A stretch of 64,000 nucleotides of DNA from Herpetosiphon aurantiacus DSM 785 (GTDB lineage: Bacteria > Chloroflexota > Chloroflexia > Chloroflexales > Herpetosiphonaceae), in contig CP000875.1 of the NCBI GenBank assembly GCA_000018565.1, positions 505,199-569,198 on the forward strand, given 5' to 3'. The notes below the pieces were generated by a model. It was not told where the DNA came from. It ran no database searches and saw nothing but the letters and a program-made list of their open reading frames with translations. Made by a program: the position numbers and the translations under genes. Within the stretch, counting starts at the first letter, position 1. Each line of letters opens with the position of its first letter. This document shows, in pieces, positions 4-44,723 of this stretch.

Positions 4-1520
4 TTGTTGCTATGCTTGGGGGTGTTGAGCACCTGCCAAGCCCAACAGCCCACCCCAACCGTGATTACTCAAGCTAGCCCAACCATGCCACCAGCAGTAG
101 CCCAAGCCAGCCCAACCCAACCAAGCGCCACCCCAACCCCGCTACCCTTGCGTGTGCCCACCAATGAACGGGTGTTGGTGCAATTGAAAAAACCTGAATT
201 TGGCTTAGATATTAACTATTTTTGGATAGAACCAAGTGGCGAATTAACCGCTGTTGGTGCCGAATATCCTTATAAATTTATCAGTATCTTTGCTGAACAG
301 CAACTTGCAATTACCCATTTGGCCCATTTTATTCAGCTTTTTGATTTGACAACCAATCAATAGAGCAACCAGTCTCTGCTACCGAAATCCTACTCCCTGA
401 AACTGAGCGTTACCCACTAGCGATGTTCGCCAAGGGAAGGGTTTCATATTCGACTCTCTGGAGCGATCAACAAGTTGATCTGCTTGAGAATATGGATGTA
501 GTCGTCAATCGGCCTTATTTACCAGCTTTAGTCTTGTATATGCGCTACAATCCAGACCCTCAGCCTCATGAGCTATGGTTGTATGATCCACAAATGCAGA
601 CCCATACTCAAATTGAGTATACGAACCCAGATTATGTATTCAATGGGATGAGTCAAGCTTTGATCGATCCCAATTTGTAACAAGTGCTGATTATCCGAGT
701 GCCCCATGAATCGCCCCGTTTGTTGCGCTTAGATTTAGTCACCAATCAGCTTTCTGCATTTGAAACAACGTTCCAGCCGAATGATTACCGACGGATTGAG
801 CCGCTGGCCTGGCATGGACAAACACTCTATGTCTTGTTTCATGATCAACCAAATGGCTCCGCTACGCTCCAGCCAGTGTTAGCCAAGCTAACGCTTAACC
901 AACAAGCTAAAATCGAGATTTTAGCCGAATTAGCCGATTGGCCTGATTATTGGGTCAGTGCCAACCAACAAGCCCTCGTTTATCGCCAAAGCCAAACGGC
1001 CACTGAACAAACGCTGGTCTGGTGGAATTTAACCGATCAAACCTCACGCACGCTCACATTGCCGTTGGTATCGCACGCTGCCCTAGCCTTGGCTCCCGAT
1101 GGCTCGGCCTTGGCGATGGTCACGCTTGACCCAACCCAGCAGGTGGCCGAATTGCGCCGCTACGACTATGCCAGCCAAACTTGGCAGACACTTGATCAAC
1201 AGGCAAGCGGTCAGATTGTCACCACCAATCCTGTTGTTGGTTGGTCGGCGGATAGTCAACATTTGTGGTGGCAACGAAGTTTGCCACAGCCGTTGCTTGC
1301 CAAGGAGTATCGCGTGTACACAGCAACCGGAGCGTTGCAATCGACTGACGAATTGCCATTGCATCACCAGGCGGTGGTGAGTGCGGATGCTGAAACTCTC
1401 GTTTTAGTTGGGGTGGCGGGCACAATGCTTCAAGAACGCCAACATGGGCGCATAACCGCCCAGTTTCCTTTGCCCGTTGATCTCTTGGAGCAAAAGGTGC
1501 TAGCTGGAGTCAATCGCTAA
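4..1520 (+). pseudogene. Possibly disrupted secreted beta-propeller (TolB/PD40-like) gene. Three consecutive ORFs (4..363, 423..680, 684..1520). ORFs 2 and 3 are in the same frame, separated only by TAA at 678..680. ORF 1 is in another frame and enters from upstream of the window.
   Basis: Signal/lipobox-like N-terminus (LLCLGVLSTC). The motif LDL(V/T)TNQ recurs in ORF 1 and ORF 3. A single in-frame stop sits between ORF 2 and ORF 3. No separate RBS for ORF 3. Confidence 0.3.
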
Positions 1521-1645
1521 AAGCCAGACCCCAGCTTGGTTGTTACCAAACTGGGGTTTTCGATTAAGTTGCTGCTTAGTACTCATTGGCAGCTAGAGTT
1601 TCGCCCCACGGCATTGGTTGGTTGCAGTCACAAAACTCATATCCT
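1521..1645. repeat. Direct repeat copy A (about 125 bp, about 80% identical to 4413..4537). Contains a terminator hairpin agaccccagcttgg..ccaaactggggt.
   Basis: Aligned by eye to copy B. The reverse strand reads L*LPMSTK, a decayed version of the protease C-terminus LYLPMITK* that copy B encodes. Confidence 0.7.
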
Positions 1646-1763
1646 TGTGTGTACCCAATCAGTCTTGGGGCTGATGGGTACTCAGTCATGCGATGGGCTA
1701 GCTTTGGGGCCAAGCGGCTTAAACTGAGCCTGTGCTTACATCCATGCCAACGAGGAGACCACG

Positions 1764-2774
1764 GTGTCAGTTATTGATGTTCGTAATTTGGGCAAAACCT
1801 ACCGCACCATTGAAAAAGAAGGCGGAGTCAAAGGGGCGATCAAGGCGCTCTTTCGGCCTCAATATCGCGAAAAAGTGGCAGTTCACGATTTGAATTTTCA
1901 AATCGATGCTGGCGAAATTGTCGGCTATATTGGAGTCAATGGCGCTGGCAAATCGACCACAATCAAAATGTTGACGGGAATTCTCTACCCTACGACTGGC
2001 GCTGTTACAGTTTTGGGTCACGATCCGCAGCGTGAGCGGGTGGCTAATGCGCGTAATATTGGGGTCGTGTTTGGTCAGCGTAGCCAGTTATGGTGGGATT
2101 TAGCGCTGATCGAATCACTCAATTTGGTTGCCAATATTTATGAAGTCGAGCCAAGCCGCTATAAGCAATTGCTCAGCCATTTCAGCGAGGTCTTAGAGCT
2201 TGACGAAATTTTAAAAACGCCGATTCGCTCGATGTCGCTCGGCCAGAAAATGCGAGCCGAACTAGCGGCAGCCTTCATTCACGAACCCAAAATTGTGTAT
2301 CTTGATGAGCCGACGATCGGGCTTGATGTCATGGTCAAACAGCGGATTCGCGAATTTATTAAAGATTACAACCAAACGCATAATACGACGGTGATGCTTA
2401 CGACCCACGATTTAGGTGATATCGAGCAGCTTTGTTCGCGGGTGATCATCATTGATGCTGGCAGCAAAGTCTACGATGGGCCGTTGCATGCCATCAAGCA
2501 ACAATTTGGCAAATATCGCACAATTACCTTTGAAACCAACCAACCAATTACCAATGTGCAATTGCCACCAGCCTGCGAGCAATTAAGTTTGAGCGAATAT
2601 AGCCTTGAATTGAAGTTTGATCGCAGCCAATTAAGTGCCAGCCAAGTAGCCACAGCCTTGATGCAGCAAATAGATGTGGCCGATTTTACCTTGAATGAGC
2701 CTGATCTTGAGAGTATCATCAAACATTTATATCAAAACCCCACAGCCTATAACGAGGTAGCAGTTAATGAATAA
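1764..2774 (+). CDS. ABC transporter ATP-binding protein (GTG start)
   Basis: Walker A GVNGAGKST, ABC signature LSLGQKMR, Walker B IVYLDEPT. RBS GAGGAG 8 nt upstream of GTG. Confidence 0.9.
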   Translation: MSVIDVRNLGKTYRTIEKEGGVKGAIKALFRPQYREKVAVHDLNFQIDAGEIVGYIGVNGAGKSTTIKMLTGILYPTTGAVTVLGHDPQRERVANARNIGVVFGQRSQLWWDLALIESLNLVANIYEVEPSRYKQLLSHFSEVLELDEILKTPIRSMSLGQKMRAELAAAFIHEPKIVYLDEPTIGLDVMVKQRIREFIKDYNQTHNTTVMLTTHDLGDIEQLCSRVIIIDAGSKVYDGPLHAIKQQFGKYRTITFETNQPITNVQLPPACEQLSLSEYSLELKFDRSQLSASQVATALMQQIDVADFTLNEPDLESIIKHLYQNPTAYNEVAVNE

Positions 2775-3579
2775 ACTTGCTTATCGTTTGCGCATCTATC
2801 GCAGTGTGGTTGGCATGAATATTAAAGAAATGCTAGCCTATAATTTATGGTTTTGGTCGCAGCTTGGGGCGCATCTCTTCCTCACAATTGTGTATGTTTC
2901 GTTTTGGAAGGCACTGTATAGCGAACGCGAAACCATCGCAGGCCTAACCATGCAACAAACCTTAACCTATATCATCTTGGCCCGCATGATTGCGCCATTG
3001 GTACAATGGGGCTATACCCAAGAATTTGGCTATTGGATTCGTGAAGGCACCATTTCTAGCGAATTATTGCGACCAGTTGATTTTCAAGAACGCATTTTTA
3101 TTGGACATCTAACCAGAACGTTTGTTGCCTTAGCGCAACAACTTTTAGTAACCGGCAGCTTTGCAGTTTTAGTGTTTGATATTCGCTTACCAACTGATCC
3201 ATTAATTTGGCTAAGTTTTCTGATTTCGTTATTACTTGGCTGTAGTATTTTATTCTGCTTTGATTGGATTTTTGGCTGTGTCGCTTTTTATTCAACCGAA
3301 GTTTGGGGTTTACAAGTCGTGCGAGGCTCTATTTTGATGCTGTTTAGTGGCGTACTTTTGCCATTAACCATGTTGCCTTCAGGTTTACAAACCCTTGCCC
3401 AATGGATGCCCTTTGCTCAAAGTGTGTCGATTCCGGTATCGTTATTGAGCGGCATTACGCCACTGGATCAGCTTGGATCGATTTGGTTGCAACAATTAGC
3501 TTGGCTAGCGGTCATGTTAATGCTTTCCCGCTTGATGTTCAACTTCAGCGTGCGCAAAATAACCGTACAAGGTGGCTGA
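2767..3579 (+). CDS. ABC-2 type transporter permease
   Basis: Multi-TM hydrophobic protein. ATGA overlap with the ATPase gene. RBS gaggt. Confidence 0.8.
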   Translation: MNKLAYRLRIYRSVVGMNIKEMLAYNLWFWSQLGAHLFLTIVYVSFWKALYSERETIAGLTMQQTLTYIILARMIAPLVQWGYTQEFGYWIREGTISSELLRPVDFQERIFIGHLTRTFVALAQQLLVTGSFAVLVFDIRLPTDPLIWLSFLISLLLGCSILFCFDWIFGCVAFYSTEVWGLQVVRGSILMLFSGVLLPLTMLPSGLQTLAQWMPFAQSVSIPVSLLSGITPLDQLGSIWLQQLAWLAVMLMLSRLMFNFSVRKITVQGG

Positions 3580-3581
3580 TA

Positions 3582-4370
3582 ATGCTGCGTTATAGCAAAA
3601 TCTATTGGTATTTCGTCGTTCAGCGTTTCAAAATTTTGATGGAATATCGGCTGAATTTTTTTATTGGCTCGATTTCAACCGTGCTATTTCAAGGTGCGAG
3701 CATTATTGCAATGTGGGCAGTTTTGCGCCAAGTTCCAAGCATCCAAGGCTGGACACTTGAGCAAATTCTACTAATTTACGGCTTGTTGACCTTATCCAAA
3801 GGCATCAATCATTTGTTTGCTGATAATCTTTGGGTGATTGGGCGCGATTATATTCGACCTGGCCAATTTGATCGTTTTTTGGTGCGGCCAATTAATCCAT
3901 TATTCCATTTATTAGCCGATCGAATTTGTCATGATGCGATTGGTGATTTTATTGTCGGCTTTGGCTTGGTTGGTTATGCAATGGTCAAGTTACAATTACC
4001 AATTACCCTGGCAAGCATTAGTTTTATCATATTAATGGTTATCAGTGGGGGCATTATTTTTATTGCGCTGAATTTAATCACTGCGGCAACTGCTTTTTGG
4101 ATTATGGATTCAATTCCGGTAACCAATCTAGTGTTCAGCACCAATGAATTTGCGCAATATCCGCTAACCTTTTATCATCGCTCAGTCGGCATTTTATTGA
4201 CATGGCTGTTACCATATGGCTTTGCCTCGTATTATCCGGCCAGCTATTTACTCGGCCACTCGATTGGCTGGATGGCATGGCTGGCTCCGCTGATAGCGCT
4301 CGTGAGTATCACCATTGCCTATCGCTTTTGGGTATTTGGCCTCAAACACTACGGCAGCACTGGCTCGTGA
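3582..4370 (+). CDS. ABC-2 type transporter permease (second)
   Basis: In-frame ATG at 3582, 2 nt after the previous stop. Multi-TM. The longer 3402 start would overlap the upstream permease. Confidence 0.8.
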   Translation: MLRYSKIYWYFVVQRFKILMEYRLNFFIGSISTVLFQGASIIAMWAVLRQVPSIQGWTLEQILLIYGLLTLSKGINHLFADNLWVIGRDYIRPGQFDRFLVRPINPLFHLLADRICHDAIGDFIVGFGLVGYAMVKLQLPITLASISFIILMVISGGIIFIALNLITAATAFWIMDSIPVTNLVFSTNEFAQYPLTFYHRSVGILLTWLLPYGFASYYPASYLLGHSIGWMAWLAPLIALVSITIAYRFWVFGLKHYGSTGS

Positions 4371-4412
4371 GAATTGCTCTACGGGTTGGTATTCTACCTT
4401 CAATCGCTAAAA

Positions 4413-4537
4413 AGCAAGACCCCAGCTTGATAATAACCAAGCTGGGGTCTCCAATTAAGCTGCTACTTGGTGATCATTGGTAGATAGAGATTCGAGCCAC
4501 GGCACTGGTTGGTTTCAGTTACGAAGCTGATATCATC
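4413..4537. repeat. Direct repeat copy B. Its left part is the intrinsic terminator of the protease gene; its right part encodes the last ~25 codons of the protease.
   Basis: Hairpin 4417..4450 (agaccccagcttg/caagctggggtct) with a T-run on the minus strand. Similar to 1521..1645. Confidence 0.7.
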
Positions 4538-7516
4538 GATACTAAAGCGCACAATGTTGGCAGTTGAGTTATTGACTGAATCGAAGCGCAAGACATGCTC
4601 GCCGGCACTCAGATCGGTCAACGGAATCGTGACTTTGGCATAGCCATTGTCATATTCGGTATTTGCGTCGCTAACCCGGAAAATTTCCTCACCATCAAGG
4701 CTAAGCTTGACGTAATCTTGAATTCCCCGACCGTTATGCGCGTAAATCGAGAGGTAGAATTCCAGCGTTGCATCGCCTGCGGTTGTCGTGAAGGTTTGTT
4801 GGGCAAAGGCTGTTTCGGTCGTGCCTGAGCGTGCGCCAAAGCGCAACCAACTTGTGCCAGTCCGTGGTGCGCCAGCACAACCAGGCAATGAACACAATGG
4901 CGGCGAAACATCGCTAAATGAGTTTGAGAAGGCTTGCCAATTGGTGCCAAGCTCGAAGCCACCATTAATCAGGCTTTGGCCAGCTGGCTCAACCTCGATA
5001 TTAAATACTTGACTGGCTGTCAGGTTGCCGCTATCGCGCACAGTTACGGTAATCGGGTAGGTGCCAACTGCGCTGCTACAGGCACAATTCACGTTAGCCT
5101 TCAAGATCCCAGCTTGGTTGCTGATGCTAACGTTCATGCCTGTTGGTGCGCCAGCGGTACTGACTGTCAACGCACCCGCCAAATCAAGATCATCCGAGGC
5201 AGTGCCAATGGTCGCGCTGGTTTGCTTGCCTTGTTGCACCAATACGTCGCTGCTAAGGAACAAACTTGGCGCGGCTGGTGCGGCTGGGCCATTACAGGTG
5301 TAAATTTCAAAGTCGTCGATCGACCAGGTAACTGAGCGATTTGGCGTTGGGGTATCGCCAAGCGCGACCTTGAATCGGAAGCGGATCGATTGCCCAGCCA
5401 AGCTGGCTAAGTTCAAGCGGCTGGCGTTATAGCCATTGCTGTTGCCAACATAGGCTTGCTCGCCGCCAAACGCGCCATCTTCGGCGATATTAGTTGGGCC
5501 GTTGAAGCTAAACAAACCAGCAGCTGACTGCCAAGTACTACCATTGTTGGTGCTATATTCCACCACGCCCGCATCGATTGGCGCATAGAAATCATAGGCA
5601 TGGCGGAAGTAGGCAAAGCCATTGGCGGGAACCGTGACACTCGCATTTTGGGTAAAGGCCGATTCTTCAACCGCCTGATTCCACCCATACACACCGTTAT
5701 AGTTGGTTGCTGAGCCACTACCGCTAGTTGCATATGTCCCAACGAGTGGCGCTGGATTGGTAGTCCAAGTTTCGGTGCTGCCACTCAAGGCGCTTGCACT
5801 CCAACGATTATTGGGCAAGGCCTCAAAATCTTCGTTGAAAACGGTCGTTTGGGTTTGGCCAGGGCTACAAGCAGCAATATCAGGGGCTGGCGCGTTGGTT
5901 GGCTGAAGATCCATTTCGGTTGCCAAAATGGTTTTATTGACTTCAACACAATCGGCGGCGGTAATCCCATGGCTGCCTGTCAGGCTGGTACAGGCTTGGC
6001 GCAAGGCCGAAGCAAGGTCGGCATAATCGCTGCCCGAAGTTAACGAGCTAATTTGGGTTTCATAGAATAAATGGGCAGTTTTGGTGATGCCAATTGAGGC
6101 GATGGTTTGGCCGTTGAACGTATCGCCATCGCTTAAAAGATAGGCAGCCTTATTGGCGACACCACTGTTACTGTGCACCCCACCACTATCAAGCAGATTA
6201 GGATCGAGCACATACAATTCGCTCAACATGCGGTCGGGCTGATCACCTTGGGTTGGGTCTTGCATATTGCGAATCCCGCCCAAATCCTCGCCCATAATCC
6301 AGCGGGTAGTTTCGTCATCGTCGGCGCTACCATTGGTTTGATCCATAAATTCGCCGAAGATATCCGACATGGCTTCGTTGATTGCACCTGATTGGAAGTA
6401 GTAGAACAGGTTCGAGGTATATTCGGTTACCCCGTGCGACAATTCGTGGGCAACCACATCGTCGGCAGCAGCAAAGCCTTGGCCATAGGTCATTTGGCGA
6501 CCATTCCAGAAGGCGTTGCCATACGGGCAGCCCGCGCCAGGTGGGCAGTGCTTGACCAGTGAGATCAAGTTCATGCCGTTGTTGTCGATGCTGTTACGGC
6601 CAAAGAACAAGTTGAAGAAGTCGTAGGTATCACCCGAATAATCGTAAGCGGCATCGATATCAGCATCGTTGCTAGCGGCTGAGCCTTCGGTGCGCACATA
6701 TTCGCTTGGTTGATCACAGTTGTTATTGGGATTATCGTCGTTATCGACCACGTTGTTATCGTTACAAACGAAGCGATTTTTAGCAAAGCCAATTTGATTG
6801 AAGGCTAAGCTAATTTCGCCTGACTGGGCGTTAACGAACACATATTCGCGAATCGGGTTGCTGCTGGTTGATTCAACCGTAACAAACCAAACCAGGCTGC
6901 TTTTTTGTAAGCCTGTGCCACCCAACAAAGCTGGGTTATAAATTGCTAATTCGCTTTTGCTCACGTTCAACGCTGCCAAATTGACATCGTATTTGGTGGC
7001 AACATAGGTTTGGGCGGTATTAATCGCCTTGGCTTGGTCAATTTTGGGGTTGGTGTTTAAATTGAGATTTGGCAACACTTCGCCGTTGATGCTCAGTAAT
7101 TCACCAGCCTGATTGACTTGAACTTGCAATTCGCCAGCAATGACTGGCACGCCTTGGTAGCGCTGTTTATAACGCACAACCTGGCGACCATCTTGGGTGG
7201 TGCTAGTTTTGGCAACGGTGGCATCGCTGGCTTGAGCTAAGCCGAACAAATTGCCATATTCAGCCAAATAGGCATTGGCAATGTTGAGCGTATCAGCGCG
7301 ATTCAAGCCTACTGGTTGATCGAGGGTTGTGCCAGCGGCTGCGCCAATCCAGCGCACATAGCCAGTTTGGCTGTGGCGAGCAACATTGGCTCCTTGGCTG
7401 AGCAAGCGATTGATGGGCGAATTGGTGGTGGGCGTTTGGGCATTGCTCCGGCTTAACGGCAGCATGCTCACAACAATTAATACTGCTAGCAAACGCAGCA
7501 TTCGCATCGAACGCAT
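4463..7516 (-). CDS. Secreted M4 (thermolysin-family) zinc metalloprotease with a long C-terminal extension
   Basis: HExxH in VVAHELSHGV, then GAINEAMSDIFGE (the third Zn ligand region). Signal peptide MRSMRMLRLLAVLIVVSMLPLSRSNAQ. RBS aaggaaag before the ATG at 7516 (the 7654 start is rejected). Confidence 0.85.
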   Translation of the reverse strand: MRSMRMLRLLAVLIVVSMLPLSRSNAQTPTTNSPINRLLSQGANVARHSQTGYVRWIGAAAGTTLDQPVGLNRADTLNIANAYLAEYGNLFGLAQASDATVAKTSTTQDGRQVVRYKQRYQGVPVIAGELQVQVNQAGELLSINGEVLPNLNLNTNPKIDQAKAINTAQTYVATKYDVNLAALNVSKSELAIYNPALLGGTGLQKSSLVWFVTVESTSSNPIREYVFVNAQSGEISLAFNQIGFAKNRFVCNDNNVVDNDDNPNNNCDQPSEYVRTEGSAASNDADIDAAYDYSGDTYDFFNLFFGRNSIDNNGMNLISLVKHCPPGAGCPYGNAFWNGRQMTYGQGFAAADDVVAHELSHGVTEYTSNLFYYFQSGAINEAMSDIFGEFMDQTNGSADDDETTRWIMGEDLGGIRNMQDPTQGDQPDRMLSELYVLDPNLLDSGGVHSNSGVANKAAYLLSDGDTFNGQTIASIGITKTAHLFYETQISSLTSGSDYADLASALRQACTSLTGSHGITAADCVEVNKTILATEMDLQPTNAPAPDIAACSPGQTQTTVFNEDFEALPNNRWSASALSGSTETWTTNPAPLVGTYATSGSGSATNYNGVYGWNQAVEESAFTQNASVTVPANGFAYFRHAYDFYAPIDAGVVEYSTNNGSTWQSAAGLFSFNGPTNIAEDGAFGGEQAYVGNSNGYNASRLNLASLAGQSIRFRFKVALGDTPTPNRSVTWSIDDFEIYTCNGPAAPAAPSLFLSSDVLVQQGKQTSATIGTASDDLDLAGALTVSTAGAPTGMNVSISNQAGILKANVNCACSSAVGTYPITVTVRDSGNLTASQVFNIEVEPAGQSLINGGFELGTNWQAFSNSFSDVSPPLCSLPGCAGAPRTGTSWLRFGARSGTTETAFAQQTFTTTAGDATLEFYLSIYAHNGRGIQDYVKLSLDGEEIFRVSDANTEYDNGYAKVTIPLTDLSAGEHVLRFDSVNNSTANIVRFSIDDISFVTETNQCRGSNLYLPMITK

Positions 7517-7735
7517 AAATCTTTCCTTACACACTAAACGAATAACGCTCAGCATCACGCTATAAGGAAGAGTTGCCAGACCCCTCCCGATGCTGCCTAA
7601 TCCTCGCTCACCAGAGTTTCTCTCCGACCCGCGTTGCCAACCTCCCAAAAGCACTAGATGATCATATCAGCAATAGCGTTTGGCGATTATAGCGCATTCT
7701 GGCCAAAATGTGCATAGATCTTAAGATCGAGTTAT

Positions 7736-7940: not shown

Positions 7941-9005
7941 ATGCATCTTGAACTCAATGAGCGGCGACGACGGGTTCTTAAGGCGGTTATTCAACAATAC
8001 ATCGATACGGCAACGCCAGTAGCCTCGCAAGACCTTGCTAGGAGTTTGGGGGTTAGTTCGGCGACTGTCCGCAACGAAATGGCGGCGTTAGAAGATGCTG
8101 GCCTGTTGACGCATTTGCATACCTCGGCTGGGCGTTTGCCAACTGATGCTGGCTATCGCTTTTTTGTCGAAAATTTGATGGATCGGGCGGCGCTTTCGAC
8201 CCAAGAACAGCGCATGATCCAACATCAGTTTTATCAAATCCGCTCGGAATTGAACCAATGGATTCATTTGGCAGCAGCGGTTTTGGCTCGCACCGCCCAA
8301 ACGGCGGCGGTGGTTACGCCCCCGCGAGCCTACGAGAGCCGCTTCAAACATATCGAGTTAATTTCAATCAACGATGCCTTGGTCTTGTTGGTGTTGGTGT
8401 TGCACGAAGGCTCGGTCAAGCAGCAAACGCTGCCTGCCGACCCCAATACGACCCAAGAGCAACTAAGCCGCATCGCCGGACGAATTAATGAGTTGTGTCA
8501 TGAAGCCTCAGCCAAGGCGATTGCCAACATCGCTCACAATCAGTCAACCAACCAGCCGCCGCTTAGCAGTTTTGAAGTGCTGGTGATCGAGAGCGTGGCG
8601 CGGGCCATGCAACAATTCGAGGAGCATGTCAACGAATTAATTCATCACGATGGCCTGCTAGAGATGTTGCATCAACCAGAATTTGGCCAGGTGACGCGGG
8701 TACGCGAGGTGCTTTCGATCCTTGAAGGCGGCACCATGCTTGAGTCGTTGATTCCCCAAGCCTTGGCTTCGGATGGCGTGCAAGTGATCATCGGTGGTGA
8801 ACATAGCCGCGATGAACTGCGCGACTATAGCGTGATTTTGTCGCGTTACGGGGTCAATGGCGATGTTGCTGGTGTGGTAGGGGTTTTAGGGCCGCGTCGC
8901 ATGGCCTATCCACGTTCCATCTCCAGCGTGCGTTATATTGCTGGCGTGATGAGCGATTTGATGGGCGATTTATATGGCGAACGCAAAATAGAACCATCAG
9001 AATAG
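7941..9005 (+). CDS. hrcA: Heat-inducible transcription repressor HrcA
   Basis: N-terminal winged-helix region [36 protein letters not shown]. Sits downstream of CIRCE and is followed by grpE-dnaK-dnaJ. Confidence 0.95.
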
Positions 9006-9674: not shown

Positions 9675-11531
9675 ATGGGTAAAGTGATCGGTATTGACCT
9701 TGGAACAACCAATTCAGTGGTTGCGGTCATGGAAGGTGGCGAGGCGGTGGTGATTCCTAACGCCGAAGGCGCTCGCACCACTCCTTCAATTGTTGCCTTG
9801 AGCAAAAACGGTGAACGCACGGTTGGCTTGGTTGCCAAGCGCCAATCGGTCACCAATCCCGAAAATACAATTTATTCGGTCAAGCGCTTTATTGGTCGTA
9901 AATTGGATCATCCCAGCGTCCAACGCGATAAAGATTTGATTCCCTACCGCATGACCAGCGCTCCCAATGGCGATGCGCGGGTCTTGATGGGCGGTCGCGA
10001 TTATTCGCCGCAAGAAGTTTCGGCCATGATTTTGCAAAAACTCAAAGCCGATGCCGAAGCCTATTTGGGTGAGCCTGTCAGCCAAGCGGTGATTACGGTT
10101 CCGGCCTATTTCGATGATTCGCAGCGCCAAGCGACCAAAGATGCTGGCAAAATTGCTGGCCTTGAAGTATTGCGAATTATCAACGAGCCAACCGCCAGCG
10201 CCTTGGCGTATGGCTTGGAGCGCAACAGTAACGAATTAATTGTCGTCTATGACCTTGGTGGTGGTACGTTCGATGTTTCCATTTTGGAGCTTGGCGAGGG
10301 TGTGTTTGAGGTTCGGGCGACCAACGGCGATACCCACCTCGGCGGCGATGATTTTGATCAAAAGATTATCGATTGGCTAGCCAGCGAGTTTCAACGCGAA
10401 AATAATATCGATCTGCGTAGCGACCGTATGGCACTGCAACGTTTGAAAGAAGCTTCGGAAAAAGCTAAGCAAGAACTTTCGAGCGTGTTGCAAACCGATA
10501 TTTCGCTGCCATTTATCAGTGCCGATGCCAGTGGCCCCAAACACTTGAACACCACTCTGACCCGTGCCAAACTTGAGCAACTGACCGCTGATTTGGTCGA
10601 ACGCACGCTCAAGCCAATCAAACTGGCCTTGCAAGATGCTGGTTTGAAGCCAGGCGAAGTTGATGAAGTGATTTTGGTTGGTGGCCAAACCCGCATGCCC
10701 GCAGTGCAGGCTGCGGTTAAAAAATTCTTTGGCAAAGAGCCACACAAGGGTGTAAACCCTGATGAAGTGGTGGCGATTGGGGCTGCAATTCAGGCTGGCG
10801 TGCTGGCTGGTGATGTTACCGACGTGTTGTTGCTTGACGTAACGCCATTGACCTTGGGGATCGAAACCTATGGCGGCGTGATGACACCATTAATTGATCG
10901 CAACACCACGATTCCAACCAAGCGCTCACAAATTTTCTCAACTGCCAGCGACAACCAAAACAGCGTTGAAATTCATGTGTTGCAAGGCGAACGGGCTGAA
11001 GCTCGACATAACAAATCCTTGGCGCGTTTTACCCTCGATGGCATTCCAGCCGCGCCGCGTGGCGTGCCGCAAATTGAAGTTATTTTTGATATTGATGCCA
11101 ACGGGATTGTCAACGTCAGCGCAACCGATAAAGCTACCAACAAAGAGCAAAAAATCACGATCACGCCATCATCGGGCTTGAATGATGATGAAATTTCAGC
11201 CATGATTCGCGATGCCGAAGATCATGCCGATAGCGATGCTCGCCGCCGTGATCAGATTGCGACCCGCAACAAAGCCGATGGCGTGATCTACGCTGCTGAT
11301 CGGATGTTGCGCGAAGCTGATGATAACGTTGATTACACTGCCCGCAACACGGTCGAAGATCGGATTGCAGCGCTACGGGCGGTGCTTGATGGCGATGATA
11401 TGGAAGCGATCAACAATCGTACCGCTGAATTGAGCGTGGCAATGCAACGACTCAAACCAGCGCCCGATTTTGGCATCGAGCCAGAAACGCCGAGCCAAGA
11501 CCACGGCTCCGCCGACGAGGTGGAACTGTAA
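9675..11531 (+). CDS. dnaK: Molecular chaperone DnaK (Hsp70)
   Basis: [22 protein letters not shown], and the full Hsp70 architecture. Start moved to the conserved MGKVIG. Confidence 0.97.
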
Positions 11532-11535
11532 GCGA

Positions 11536-11660
11536 AAGTCAAAAATCTAAAATCAAAAGTCAGAAATCAAAGGGCGAAATACTCCAAAGATTTCGAAAAG
11601 ACCATCGATTCTGACTTTTGACCTTTGGCTTTTGGCTTTTGACCTTTGACTTTTGACTTT
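11536..11660. repeat. Inverted arrays of 7-bp repeats (AAARTCA x5 / YTTTGRC x7) between dnaK and dnaJ
   Basis: aaagtcaaaaatctaaaatcaaaagtcagaaatcaaag ... ctgacttttgacctttggcttttggcttttgacctttgacttttgacttttt. Confidence 0.75.
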
Positions 11661-12970: not shown

Positions 12971-13097
12971 GGTTGCGTTGACATGGTTTGGTTCCTCACA
13001 TTACCTCGGACTGAGTGGATATGCAATCTCTTCCCTGAGCTTCGTGACTCCAACCTGAAACAATTGGATACATTACCATAGTTGGAGAAACAAGCTA

Positions 13098-13511
13098 ATG
13101 AGCTTTACCGACAAGACGTTGAACTGCCGCGATTGTGGCAACGAGTTCGTATTTACTGCTGGCGAACAAGAATTTTACTCACAAAAAGGCTTTGACAACG
13201 AGCCAACTCGCTGTTCAAACTGCCGCCAAGCCCGCAAGCAAAATCGCGGTGGCGGTGGCTACGAAAGCTCAAGCCGTGGCGGTGGCGGTGGTGGTTATAG
13301 CCGCAACAGCTATGGCTCAGATCGTGGCGGTTACAGTTCAGATCGTGGCGGTTACAGTTCAGATCGTGGTCAACGCGAAATGCACACCACCACTTGTTCA
13401 TCATGTGGCGGCCCTGCACAAGTGCCATTCGTACCACGTGGCGACAAACCAGTCTACTGCCGTGACTGTTTCCAAAGCCAACAATCATCATCACGCTCGA
13501 ACCGCTGGTAA
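13098..13511 (+). CDS. Zinc-ribbon protein (FmdB-like CxxC...CxxC at the N-terminus, second CxxC...CxxC at the C-terminus) with a Gly/Tyr/Ser/Arg-rich low-complexity linker
   Basis: CRDCGNEF...CSNC and CSSCGG...CRDC. Tandem 21-bp nucleotide repeats encode SDRGGYS x3. RBS ggag. Confidence 0.75.
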   Translation: MSFTDKTLNCRDCGNEFVFTAGEQEFYSQKGFDNEPTRCSNCRQARKQNRGGGGYESSSRGGGGGGYSRNSYGSDRGGYSSDRGGYSSDRGQREMHTTTCSSCGGPAQVPFVPRGDKPVYCRDCFQSQQSSSRSNRW

Positions 13512-13583: not shown

Positions 13584-13755
13584 TGATCCTCACAACTTCA
13601 AGATAGTTCTTTAGTACGGATCACGGAGTAGTACTAGTGCTATCCTCGATTAGCTGCGTTATACTATAGCCCATACTATTTAACACTTTTTAGCCTGATT
13701 CTTAGAACAATAAAGCCTGTTTGTAATGGTTTATCGTATGAACAACGGCCAGCGC

Positions 13756-13859
13756 TCCCTCACCCCCAGCCCCCCCTCTCCCGTACGCGAGGCGAGGGGG
13801 AACCGCTCCAGCAGTGCTCCCCTCGCCCGCCTCCGTGGGAGAGGGGCTGGGGGTGAGGG
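13756..13859. repeat. G-rich palindromic intergenic element (family copy 1)
   Basis: ccctcacccccagccccc...gcgaggcgagggg / cccctcgcccgcc...gggagaggggctgggggtgaggg. The two halves are reverse complements of each other. Confidence 0.8.
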
Positions 13860-13941
13860 AACGGAAACATGGTTGCCAACCCAATGAACCATTACACCTA
13901 TTGGCTAGCTTTGTACAACCTCTTCCAACGGAGGTACTGGC

Positions 13942-17067: not shown

Positions 17068-17114
17068 CTAATTTAAGCCTAAAACCCAATAAAATAATCC
17101 ACAAATTGAAATTT

Positions 17115-17176
17115 AGGGGGTGCAGGGGGATGAAAACACCCTGCGTTCCCCGCCTTGAGGCGGGGCGGAGGGGTGG
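17115..17176. repeat. G-rich palindromic element (variant copy 2)
   Basis: gggggtgcaggggga..ccctgcgttccccgccttgaggcggggcggaggggtg. Confidence 0.6.
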
Positions 17177-17344
17177 TGATCACGAATGAATATTAAAAAC
17201 TACTACTGTAAGCTAGAACGGAGGGAGAGTGATCCTCAATCTACGCATAAAACCCCTAAAGACTACATGAAATAAAAGCAGAATTGGCAACTAGCCCAGC
17301 TCAAGGTATGCTTAACCAAAAGCAATTTTAGAGGTAGCTGACCA

Positions 17345-18927: not shown

Positions 18928-18930
18928 GTA

Positions 18931-18960
18931 ACATCAAAAGGCAAAAGTCAGAAGTCAAAA
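18931..18960. repeat. AAARKCA heptamer array (aacatca aaaggca aaagtca gaagtca aaag)
   Basis: Same 7-bp unit as the dnaK-dnaJ intergenic arrays. Confidence 0.6.
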
Positions 18961-19021
18961 GATGGAATATGGCTACTGGCTATGGACTATCGGAACATTT
19001 TGTAGAATTGCCTTTTGTCTT

Positions 19022-19128
19022 CCCTCACCTCCTAGCCCGAACGCGAGGCGAGGGGGAACTTTCCCATTATGAAGGAAGGGTGGAACGCCCCTCGCCCACC
19101 GCCGTGGGCGAGAGGTTGGGGGTGAGGG
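19022..19128. repeat. G-rich palindromic element (copy 3)
   Basis: tccctcacctcctagcccgaacgcgaggcgagggggaac ... cccctcgcccaccgccgtgggcgagaggttgggggtgaggg. Confidence 0.8.
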
Positions 19129-40412: not shown

Positions 40413-40620
40413 GACCGTTTGCTCCTTTCAAGCAGTGGTTGATTAGACTGCGCTCACTATAAAGCTAGATAGTCCGAAACAACGTCCTTGCTCACGTCCC
40501 AAAGGTCAATAAAAGATTAATAAACGATGAAGTAGCGATGAAGATTGGGCAAAATGGTTAATTTTTTGCAGGTTAAATGCTAGTTTGAGCAGCTAAAATT
40601 CGCACGGCTTTAAATCAAAG

Positions 40621-40701
40621 CCCCTCGCCTGCCGCAGCGGGAGAGGGGTTGGGGTGAGGGGGCGTTAAAACCTACTCTTGCGAGAGGGGTTGGGGTGAGG
40701 G
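40621..40701. repeat. G-rich element, two right-half units (copy 4)
   Basis: cccctcgcctgccgcagcgggagaggggttggggtgaggg ... gagaggggttggggtgaggg. Confidence 0.75.
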
Positions 40702-44512: not shown

Positions 44513-44621
44513 TAGATTTAGCTGATTAAATGGGGTTAAATACGCTTCAAGCTATCGGCTAGACAATGGTACAATTTGTGATAATACAGCGCTGTTAACA
44601 ATAGTATAGATGCCCTCACCC

Positions 44622-44723
44622 CCTAGCCCCCTAGCCCGCCGAGCGAGCGAGGGGGAACCACTAAGTGAAACGCCCCTCGCCCGCCGCAGTGGGAGAGGGG
44701 TTGGGGTGAGGGCAGGCACTACA
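44622..44723. repeat. G-rich palindromic element (copy 5)
   Basis: gccctcaccccctagccccctagcccgccgagcgagcgagggggaac ... cccctcgcccgccgcagtgggagaggggttggggtgaggg. Confidence 0.8.

Follow-up and report, generated by a model that had tools for sequence, protein, structure and literature searches.

The pair of direct repeats that flank a three-gene ABC-transporter operon in Herpetosiphon aurantiacus DSM 785 was probably (we would put it at roughly 70%) generated as a breakpoint duplication during chromosomal rearrangement and is not the footprint of a mobile cassette, and we hold with the same confidence that the apparent cassette is what remained between the breakpoints of at least two rearrangements. 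The stretch of DNA analyzed, referred to here as the window, is 64 kb long, and positions are those of the window unless another locus is named. The original prediction had the ABC genes inserted as a cassette through duplication of a gene end; of this, the duplication is real and five other Herpetosiphon species have no ABC genes at the site, but the operon is native to the genus and its two junctions differ in age.

The repeats and the convergent genes that share them

A repeat search returned a 125-nt ungapped direct repeat with 80% identity at 1519-1643 and 4410-4534, which is the sole long repeat within the first 9 kb and the longest in the window. Alignment with MAFFT pushes the repeat left to TCAATCGCTAA, so that the unit is taken here as ~137 bp, 1509-1645 (copy A) versus 4400-4537 (copy B), at ~80% identity; the ~125-bp repeats described originally are thus borne out and lengthened. 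The copies are identical at 111 of 139 aligned positions (79.9%, where the original prediction had set a floor of about 65%), their local alignment score of 81 compares with 10.3 +/- 1.3 and a maximum of 15 in 300 shuffles, and their longest identical run is only 13 nt (AGACCCCAGCTTG). No further copy was found in the window. What is duplicated is a module of shared gene end and terminator, and the duplication is genuine.

Each copy runs from the last 11 nt of a plus-strand gene (gene X) across a 52-bp spacer, in which a bidirectional terminator hairpin lies, to the final ~25 codons of a minus-strand gene (4463-7519) for a secreted, thermolysin-like M4 metalloprotease with C-terminal Ig-like domains (FTP, Peptidase_M4, Peptidase_M4_C). 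The coverage of the last codons and stop of gene X (..VNR, stop) had been missed originally. Copy A has X's genuine 3' end and stop codon (1509-1520), then a hairpin with its T-run on the plus strand (1526-1560) and then, on the minus strand, what remains in decayed form of the protease's final ~25 codons (1572-1645). Copy B begins with an 11-nt decayed relic of the X end (4400-4410) and continues with a hairpin with its T-run on the minus strand (4416-4451) and the protease's functional last 25 codons and stop (4463-4537). Read on the minus strand, copy B encodes ...FVTETNQCRGSNLYLPMITK and a stop, and copy A reads FVTATNQCRGAKL, a stop and LPMSTKQQ, with a Tyr codon changed from TAT to TAG and the original stop from TAG to CAG. 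The hairpin of copy B (16 pairs) and that of copy A (13 pairs) both have terminator-like scores, and the hairpin pattern occurs in the 64 kb at these two sites only, against an expectation of 0.00. The minus-strand readings and terminator scores agree with the initial description of copy B as the protease's end with its hairpin and of copy A as a decayed version with the same hairpin. Two other readings of the repeat were rejected: a widespread C-terminal sorting tail joined to a terminator (a comparable tail was seen on none of the window's other ORFs) and a structured RNA (Rfam gave one sub-threshold match, the rnk leader, with 25.7 bits versus a gathering score of 55).

Gene X (4-1520, plus strand) is a decaying pseudogene, in keeping with the earlier statement that it is fragmented. 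The ORF list and tblastn divide it into pieces of 129, 85 and 278 aa (4-363, 423-680 and 684-1520; ABX03082-ABX03084, Haur_0433), versus 757-779 aa for the orthologues in two outgroup species (L007, L008), and the pieces map to aa ~18-126, ~416-487 and ~491-754 of the intact 779-aa L008 orthologue. The lesions include a frameshift, an in-frame TAA at 678-680 and the loss of ~290 codons between the first two pieces, and independently assembled sequences with 100% identity to the window are fragmented in the same way. Pfam gave no match for X, and its 90% protein cluster holds DSM 785 variants only. No X orthologue was recovered for H. gulosus or the MAG JAIUOC01, a protein search with the third piece returning only the window's own sequence; two metagenome scans gave no match either, but they also missed JGI contigs that carry the exact protein, so that their lack of a match carries no weight.

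The ABC operon and its native locus

Between the repeats, all on the plus strand, lie a native upstream region that starts at the breakpoint motif TTGTGTG (1646-1763; motif at 1646-1652) and genes for a 336-aa ATP-binding protein (1764-2774; PF00005, 2e-27, with a DrrA-type C-terminal domain), a 270-aa permease (2767-3579; PF06182, ABC2_membrane_6, 1.6e-16) and a second, 262-aa permease, perm2 (3582-4370; PF06182, 4.6e-53). An ABC ATPase together with two PF06182 membrane components identifies an ABC-2 type transporter; in gene content and order the operon matches an uncharacterised three-gene exporter with a DrrA-like ATPase and two PF06182 permeases, and the best NCBIfam match of the ATPase is the drrA subfamily, at a score under its cut-off. 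There is nothing unusual about the transporter itself.

The operon was found in every Herpetosiphon species sampled, with perm2 orthologues at 86-98%. Four operon loci were examined directly, those of two outgroups (L017; L019 from NSE202, and L020 from a MAG) and of two close relatives, and the other species were covered through a 90% protein cluster. The ancestral context reads NUDIX and SDR genes, the ABC operon, then 332-aa, EamA and MarR genes, and in the outgroups L019 and L020 the operon shares a contig with the protease loci L011 and L007, respectively, lying beside the SDR gene at a separation of 66-75 kb. No flanking repeats were found at the ancestral operon locus L017, and a conserved block of the operon's upstream region (TCATGCGATGGGCTAGCTTT...GCGGCTTAAACTGA) is present in all species. 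Across species the operon is 82.5-83.6% identical in DNA and the protease gene 82-83.7%. Judged by these sequence comparisons, the ABC genes are evidently the genus's own operon and not an imported cassette. The GC content does dip over 2400-4400 (0.40-0.45 in the cassette versus 0.50-0.55 in the flanks), but the comparison of GC that was meant to mark the cassette as foreign fails, in that the value of 0.44 is intrinsic to the operon and is the same at L017.

Junctions in close relatives and a model of successive rearrangements

In five other Herpetosiphon species (L007-L011), X and the protease gene converge on a single terminator and are contiguous, with the module single-copy at the unrearranged site and no ABC genes between, as the proposed synteny comparison had anticipated; in three outgroup species the spacer also carries a REP-like palindromic element, present once or twice. 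Protease orthologues stand at 83-86% in these five species and at 93.5-93.9% in JAIUOC01 and H. gulosus, and the latter two have an intermediate arrangement, NUDIX-SDR/ABC/protease-HrcA-GrpE-DnaK (L021 and L022 in JAIUOC01, L023 in H. gulosus). The right junction of the window (4371-4399) has 13 nt of native operon-downstream sequence, to CTACG at 4383 where homology to the ancestral operon locus stops, and then a 16-nt filler, GGTTGGTATTCTACCT. This ABC/protease junction is the same in H. gulosus and JAIUOC01, filler included, and in H. gulosus it also keeps the X-end relic, TGAATAGCTAA. The left junction in both relatives is still the ancestral SDR/ABC one, and the copy A/ABC junction is found in DSM 785 only. 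The two junctions thus differ in age, the right one being shared with relatives and the left one confined to DSM 785.

From 1645 onward the window is collinear, at 93-95% identity, with the SDR-ABC spacer of L021 and L023 from their position 8064, and the SDR locus of DSM 785 (L026, whose proteins are identical to ABX05964 and ABX05966-68) matches L021 and L023 only up to 8080; both break products therefore carry TTGTGTG. The second product is an SDR/ArsR junction beside the ars operon, ~2,880 accession numbers away, where the SDR side ends at TTGTGTGC and the ars promoter follows. At the JAIUOC-type EamA locus (L024), a relic of the perm2 3' end (CACTGGCTCATGAG) adjoins a 326-aa gene, while the operon itself is complete at that end; another relic at L024 corresponds to window positions 4373-4388, and the junction-specific string TACGGGTTGG also occurs at the EamA locus of JAIUOC01. 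A module relic sought at the EamA/DUF2089 junction of JAIUOC01 gave weak similarity that 15 of 500 shuffles scored as highly, part of which is probably better read as the perm2-end relic. At the CAP/MarR locus of DSM 785 (L029), MarR is present and EamA was not seen, the contig ending 3 kb further on.

Ancestrally, X and the protease gene converged on one shared terminator, as they do in the outgroups, with the operon 66-75 kb away and downstream of a divergently transcribed SDR gene, and from this state we propose two steps. Since the operon and the protease gene point the same way on the contig, an inversion is needed to make the two converge. In a first step, before DSM 785, H. gulosus and JAIUOC01 separated, an inversion-type rearrangement would have fused the operon's 3' end to the terminator and protease end through a break 11 nt inside X; the right junction is present in all three genomes and the mechanism is presumed. 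The ~137-bp module was probably duplicated by staggered breaks or fill-in at this step, where we place it because in DSM 785 X keeps its full end, terminator and protease-end relic; this placement is structural, since no X orthologue was recovered in the two relatives. The perm2 end would likewise have been left on both products. In a second step, in DSM 785 only and with both products present in its genome, the SDR-ABC spacer would have broken at TTGTGTG, 118 bp ahead of where the ATPase gene starts, with the SDR side joining the distant ars operon promoter and the X-copy A end joining the operon by 2-3 nt of microhomology. Only the operon and its conserved upstream region would then be left between the breakpoints, and the remainder for this reason resembles a cassette with direct-repeat flanks. 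Each copy kept the T-run on its own gene's strand, so that the convergent genes and the operon would have stayed intact and terminated. The plus-strand T-run of copy B has decayed.

Staggered-break inversions that leave duplications of the breakpoint regions are described for the Drosophila melanogaster group (Ranz et al. 2007, PMC1885836). As in those flies, sequence that outgroups have in single copy is duplicated here where a rearranged segment was joined, the breakpoints are free of transposable elements, the breakpoint genes are intact, and both breakpoints show a duplication, of the 137-bp module and of the perm2 end (the relic at L024). Complementary break products are seen for the second step in the SDR side at L026, and for the first step only in the EamA-side product, in JAIUOC01. 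Unlike the Drosophila case, the chromosome is bacterial, the intermediate position of one copy was not observed, and the DSM 785 duplicates are direct and 2.9 kb apart, whereas a single staggered-break inversion yields inverted duplicates, so that at least one further rearrangement must have followed. Several observations weigh against the model. The position of X and copy A in the intermediate genome (H. gulosus or JAIUOC01) was not found, nor was the predicted adjacency of X-copy A and ArsR in the relatives; MscS precedes ArsR in both close relatives, and the second step must therefore have taken three or more breaks. Site patterns within the 137 bp are mixed, ~4 sites grouping copy A with DSM 785 copy B and 2-4 grouping all three B copies. 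Copy B of DSM 785 and the last ~500 bp of its protease gene are only 79-86% identical to close relatives versus a baseline of 91-94%, an unusual divergence that is explained by no model considered here.

Alternative explanations and implications

One-step insertion with a 137-bp target duplication, part of the original proposal, is workable only if the operon was copied and pasted, at the cost of additional events, and in that form we consider it unlikely. A second, 2.75-kb copy of the operon would have entered between X and the protease gene in the clade ancestor, homologous recombination between the inverted operon copies followed by deletion would have given the state of H. gulosus and JAIUOC01, and DSM 785 would have lost the original copy. 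This accounts in a single step for the repeats' direct orientation, and the cassette and repeat boundaries coincide within ~11-16 nt; recombination within the operon would restore an ancestral-looking SDR/ABC junction, and the perm2-end relic at L024 might be what a deletion left behind. It takes ~five events, however, versus three or four for successive rearrangements, DSM 785 has just a single copy context, loss of the original copy must have broken the SDR-ABC spacer within ~8-17 nt of the inserted copy's left edge, TACGGGTTGG at the EamA locus of JAIUOC01 is left unexplained, and no copying mechanism is evident, there being no transposase and no terminal inverted repeats.

It is a good deal more doubtful that the convergent-gene terminator module is a recurrent fragile or landing site, at which a hairpin-targeted break or insertion activity moves native operons and duplicates the module as it does so. 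Candidate activities would be RAYT/IS200-like or a structure-specific nuclease, and the X/protease spacer, which holds the REP-like element in three outgroup species, would in the aurantiacus clade have taken up a sizeable piece of the chromosome, most of which then disappeared. If this is true, gene order in bacteria would change by a route not described before.

Prophages and genomic islands integrate at gene 3' ends and bring a replacement end (e14 at icd, islands at tRNA genes), and direct repeats that duplicate a gene 3' end, one functional and one diverged to ~80% identity, recall such elements. Site-specific integration at the protease 3' end, by an element of this kind or by an integrase-less, cis-mobilizable one, is nevertheless very improbable, in that no integrase, excisionase or other recombinase domain was found, the 2,754-bp interval consists of the native operon and the upstream region that belongs to it (1645-4383 being collinear with the relatives' native locus) and leaves only 16 nt at the right junction unaccounted for, the junctions are of different ages, the repeat takes in a terminator and the ends of both genes that converge on it, including the end of the opposite-strand gene X, and 13 nt is the longest identity between the copies. 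We give still less credence to a horizontally acquired genomic islet; the GC dip and the missing cassette at the X/protease site in five species would fit one, but it is refuted by the presence of the operon in every Herpetosiphon species sampled, with one conserved location among the four loci of relatives that were examined, and by its divergence, which equals that of the flanking genes, and its closest homologues outside the genus are only ~64% identical. A transposon or IS insertion is at odds with an interval of three ABC genes only, with no transposase and no inverted repeat pairing the ends at 1646 and 4399, with a duplication of ~137 bp versus the typical 2-15 bp and with junctions of different ages, and an integron gene cassette is rejected because the outgroups have this hairpin at their single-copy site, as the native terminator of X and the protease gene, and the flanks hold no integrase.

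Read as the product of successive rearrangements, the locus is a tidy case and reveals no new kind of element, defence system or biochemical function. It carries a caution for genome scans, in that a low-GC operon with long direct-repeat flanks that is absent from the site in relatives looks like a mobile cassette and here would be a core operon stranded between the breakpoints of successive rearrangements. It would also be a fairly clean bacterial case in which a breakpoint duplication keeps both convergent gene ends, each with its own terminator, and it suggests that selection filters which rearrangements survive.

The duplicated gene-end unit

The longest repeat of the whole 64-kb window is a direct pair at 1519-1643 (copy A) and 4410-4534 (copy B), aligned by a repeat search over 125 nt, ungapped, at 80% identity, and flanking an operon for an ABC ATPase (PF00005, with a DrrA-like C-terminal domain) and two ABC-2 permeases (PF06182 each; the second, perm2, is ABX03087). 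A gapped alignment reaches further left, to TCAATCGCTAA, and the full unit spans ~1509-1645 in copy A and ~4400-4537 in copy B, the two agreeing at 111 of 139 positions. The original prediction that the repeats duplicate the protease gene-end and its terminator is borne out by this alignment, by a local alignment score of 81 (shuffled control 10.3 +/- 1.3) and by the terminator-like character of the hairpins in both copies, which are the only two sites of the hairpin motif in 64 kb. As read from the sequence, the unit consists of the last 11 nt and stop (..VNR*) of a + strand gene, X, a 52-bp spacer with a bidirectional terminator, and the last ~25 codons (...NLYLPMITK*) of the neighbouring minus-strand gene for a secreted M4 metalloprotease. 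Copy A retains a functional X end and the + strand T-run (GGGGTTTTCG); its protease end has decayed (a TAT codon is now TAG, and the stop TAG is now CAG). Copy B retains a functional protease end and the minus-strand T-run (CTTGCTTTTTAGC); only an 11-nt relic is left of its X end, and its + strand T-run has been lost.

Gene X, which has no family assignment, is a pseudogene in DSM 785, with pieces of 129, 85 and 278 aa (the third being ABX03084/Haur_0433) and ~290 codons missing; its orthologues have 757 aa (L007) and 779 aa (L008), and it is broken in H. geysericola too. The X family (window 4-1520; Herpetosiphon loci L003 1838-4264 and L011 15517-22660) comprises tandem ~760-810-aa secreted proteins without a Pfam domain and with faint TolB-propeller similarity; strain NSE202 has up to four tandem paralogues, and both DSM 785 and H. 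geysericola show decay of the family. The C-terminal tail of the protease, NQCRG..(V/L/I)YLP(A/M)(V/I)TK (window 4463-4537), is conserved in all Herpetosiphon orthologues and may act as a signal for sorting or processing; it is absent from every other ORF of the window. Elsewhere in the window, direct repeat pairs of 62-72 nt (34453-34514/35566-35627 and 35223-35294/36399-36470; 77-92% identical, ~1.1 kb apart) probably mark adjacent paralogous genes.

Ancestral arrangement and origin of the operon

The window and H. aurantiacus DSM 785 have identical proteins, and several assemblies, 100% identical to the window, share its arrangement. In five other species or MAGs (L007 to L011: a MAG, H. 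llansteffanensis, H. geysericola, H. giganteus and NSE202), whose proteases are 83-86% identical to that of the window, the protease and X converge contiguously on the spacer, without the ABC genes, and the unit is in its ancestral single-copy state. Because copies A and B have many derived states in common against these outgroups, the duplication arose within the window's lineage; the site patterns of the unit give mixed signals on its timing. A REP-like palindromic element (..CCCCTCGCCCGCC..GTGGGAGAGGGGYTGGGGGTGAGGG), dispersed over intergenic regions, occurs in the window (13815-13858, 19084-19127, 40617-40660 and 44669-44712; also 13722-13861, 17091-17182 and 44610-44718) and in every Herpetosiphon locus examined. 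The X|protease spacer, the one duplicated in the window, holds one copy in L010 and L011 (about 13060-13190) and two in L007 (13060-13615), which suggests an insertion hot spot.

The original reading of the operon as an inserted cassette is partly supported: a genuine duplication has occurred, but what it flanks is neither a foreign nor a mobile cassette. Orthologues in the perm2 cluster, 86-98% identical, come from H. llansteffanensis, H. geysericola, H. giganteus, H. gulosus, NSE202 and MAGs, and in L017, L019 (NSE202) and L020 (a MAG) the three + strand ABC genes lie between NUDIX(+) and SDR(-) on one side and a 332-aa gene, EamA(-), MarR, NB-ARC/TPR, CAP, PrmC and DHQS on the other. L019 shares a contig with the protease locus L011 (75 kb apart), as does L020 with L007 (66 kb), and since operon and protease have the same orientation on both contigs, an inversion is needed for their convergence in the window. 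Over window 1645/1657-4366/4383, identity to L017, L019 and L020 is 82.5-83.6%; the protease gene has 82.0-83.7%, and operon-gene GC is 0.44 in the window and L017 alike. This equal divergence and like composition indicate that the operon is native to the genus, vertically inherited and relocated; the GC dip is intrinsic to it. In the outgroup MAG (CAVYBW01; L020 7229-8010) a frameshift or assembly error divides the SDR gene beside the operon into two pieces, of 181 and 82 aa.

The two junctions of the operon

The closest relatives are MAG JAIUOC01 and a JGI strain (L021, L022; perm2 98%) and H. gulosus (L023; 95%), in which the INTERMEDIATE arrangement is NUDIX(+), SDR(-), the three + strand ABC genes, then protease(-), HrcA, GrpE, DnaK and DnaJ. 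On the left, these relatives keep the ancestral SDR|ABC spacer, which runs collinear with the outgroups across what later became the breakpoint; on the right, their junction is the one in the window. In H. gulosus the latter reads ...TGAGGATTGCTCTACGGGTTTCTACCCTGAATAGCTAAAAT..hairpin..protease end, with filler as in the window and the X-end relic, and JAIUOC01 differs by a 27-bp deletion. Since DSM 785, H. gulosus and JAIUOC01 share the ABC|copy B junction, it arose a single time, ahead of the split between these lineages. The same event's other breakpoint is a JAIUOC-type EamA locus (L024), where EamA(+), 225-aa(-) and 326-aa(-) genes adjoin DUF2089(+). Beside the 326-aa gene are relics of the perm2 3' end (..GAACACTGGCTCATGAG..), a second of which, TTGCTCAATACGGGTTGG, matches window 4373-4388, so the operon end was left on both products, like the 137-bp unit. 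Over window 4345-4950, comprising the protease 3' ~500 bp and copy B, identity to H. gulosus and JAIUOC01 is 79-86% (flanking baseline 91-94%; 87-92% between those two in the same stretch), and the DSM 785 protease has an excess of nonsynonymous change over its last ~250 codons; this could stem from relaxed selection, from a recombination tract or from conversion by copy A.

The left junction is seen only in DSM 785, which also has the other product of its break. The window matches L021 and L023 from position 8064 onwards, starting at 1645 (93-95%), and the DSM 785 SDR locus (L026; ABX05964 and ABX05966-68) matches them up to 8080 only. Around the break the SDR-ABC spacer of H. gulosus reads ..CAAGTTGTGTGCACCCAATCAGTC..; in DSM 785 the SDR side reads ..CAAGTTGTGTGC|TCAGAATCAAG.., then ~20 nt of filler and the ars promoter, and the ABC side ..CTCATATCC|TTGTGTGTACCCAATCAGTC.., so that both products of one spacer break, SDR|ArsR and copy A|ABC, are present. 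They lie ~2,880 accession numbers apart (ABX05965 vs ABX03085), a chromosomal separation if accession order follows chromosomal order. A conserved 118-bp upstream block stayed with the operon after the break. MscS precedes ArsR in H. gulosus and JAIUOC01, and thus the DSM 785 step took at least three breaks. The MscS-ArsR spacer, site of one of these breakpoints, is among the intergenic spacers with short A-rich motifs, in tandem or dispersed (AAAGGCAAAAGGCAAAAGG; AAAATCAAAAGTCAGAAATC), as well as CTTCGTG-type repeats (L031 9700-9790; L028 9740-9790; window 11528-11581 and 18930-18969). An rve-family IS transposase (578 aa; L026 5328-7064) sits inside the NUDIX/DUF3267 block of DSM 785 and is absent from that block in H. 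gulosus, JAIUOC01, NSE202 and the outgroup MAG.

Proposed history of the rearrangements

In the clade ancestor, a block ending in the ABC operon would have been inverted and joined to the protease end, with both breakpoint regions duplicated; we infer that the 137-bp duplication dates to this step, as we do the exact order and number of events. Copy A would then have stayed with X and copy B with the protease. The decaying X block was probably lost subsequently in H. gulosus and JAIUOC01; no X-family member was recovered from either, nor was the site of X and copy A found in the intermediate genome. In DSM 785, the ars locus would have received all that lay upstream of the operon, and the operon would have been joined to X-copy A. 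A possible alternative is an insertion of copy-and-paste type, with recombination between the operon copies afterwards, but it needs more events than the inversion with duplicated breakpoints. Staggered-break inversions in Drosophila likewise duplicate their breakpoint regions (PMC1885836), and the ABC operon with its repeats is an example of this known type of event, rearrangement with breakpoint duplication.
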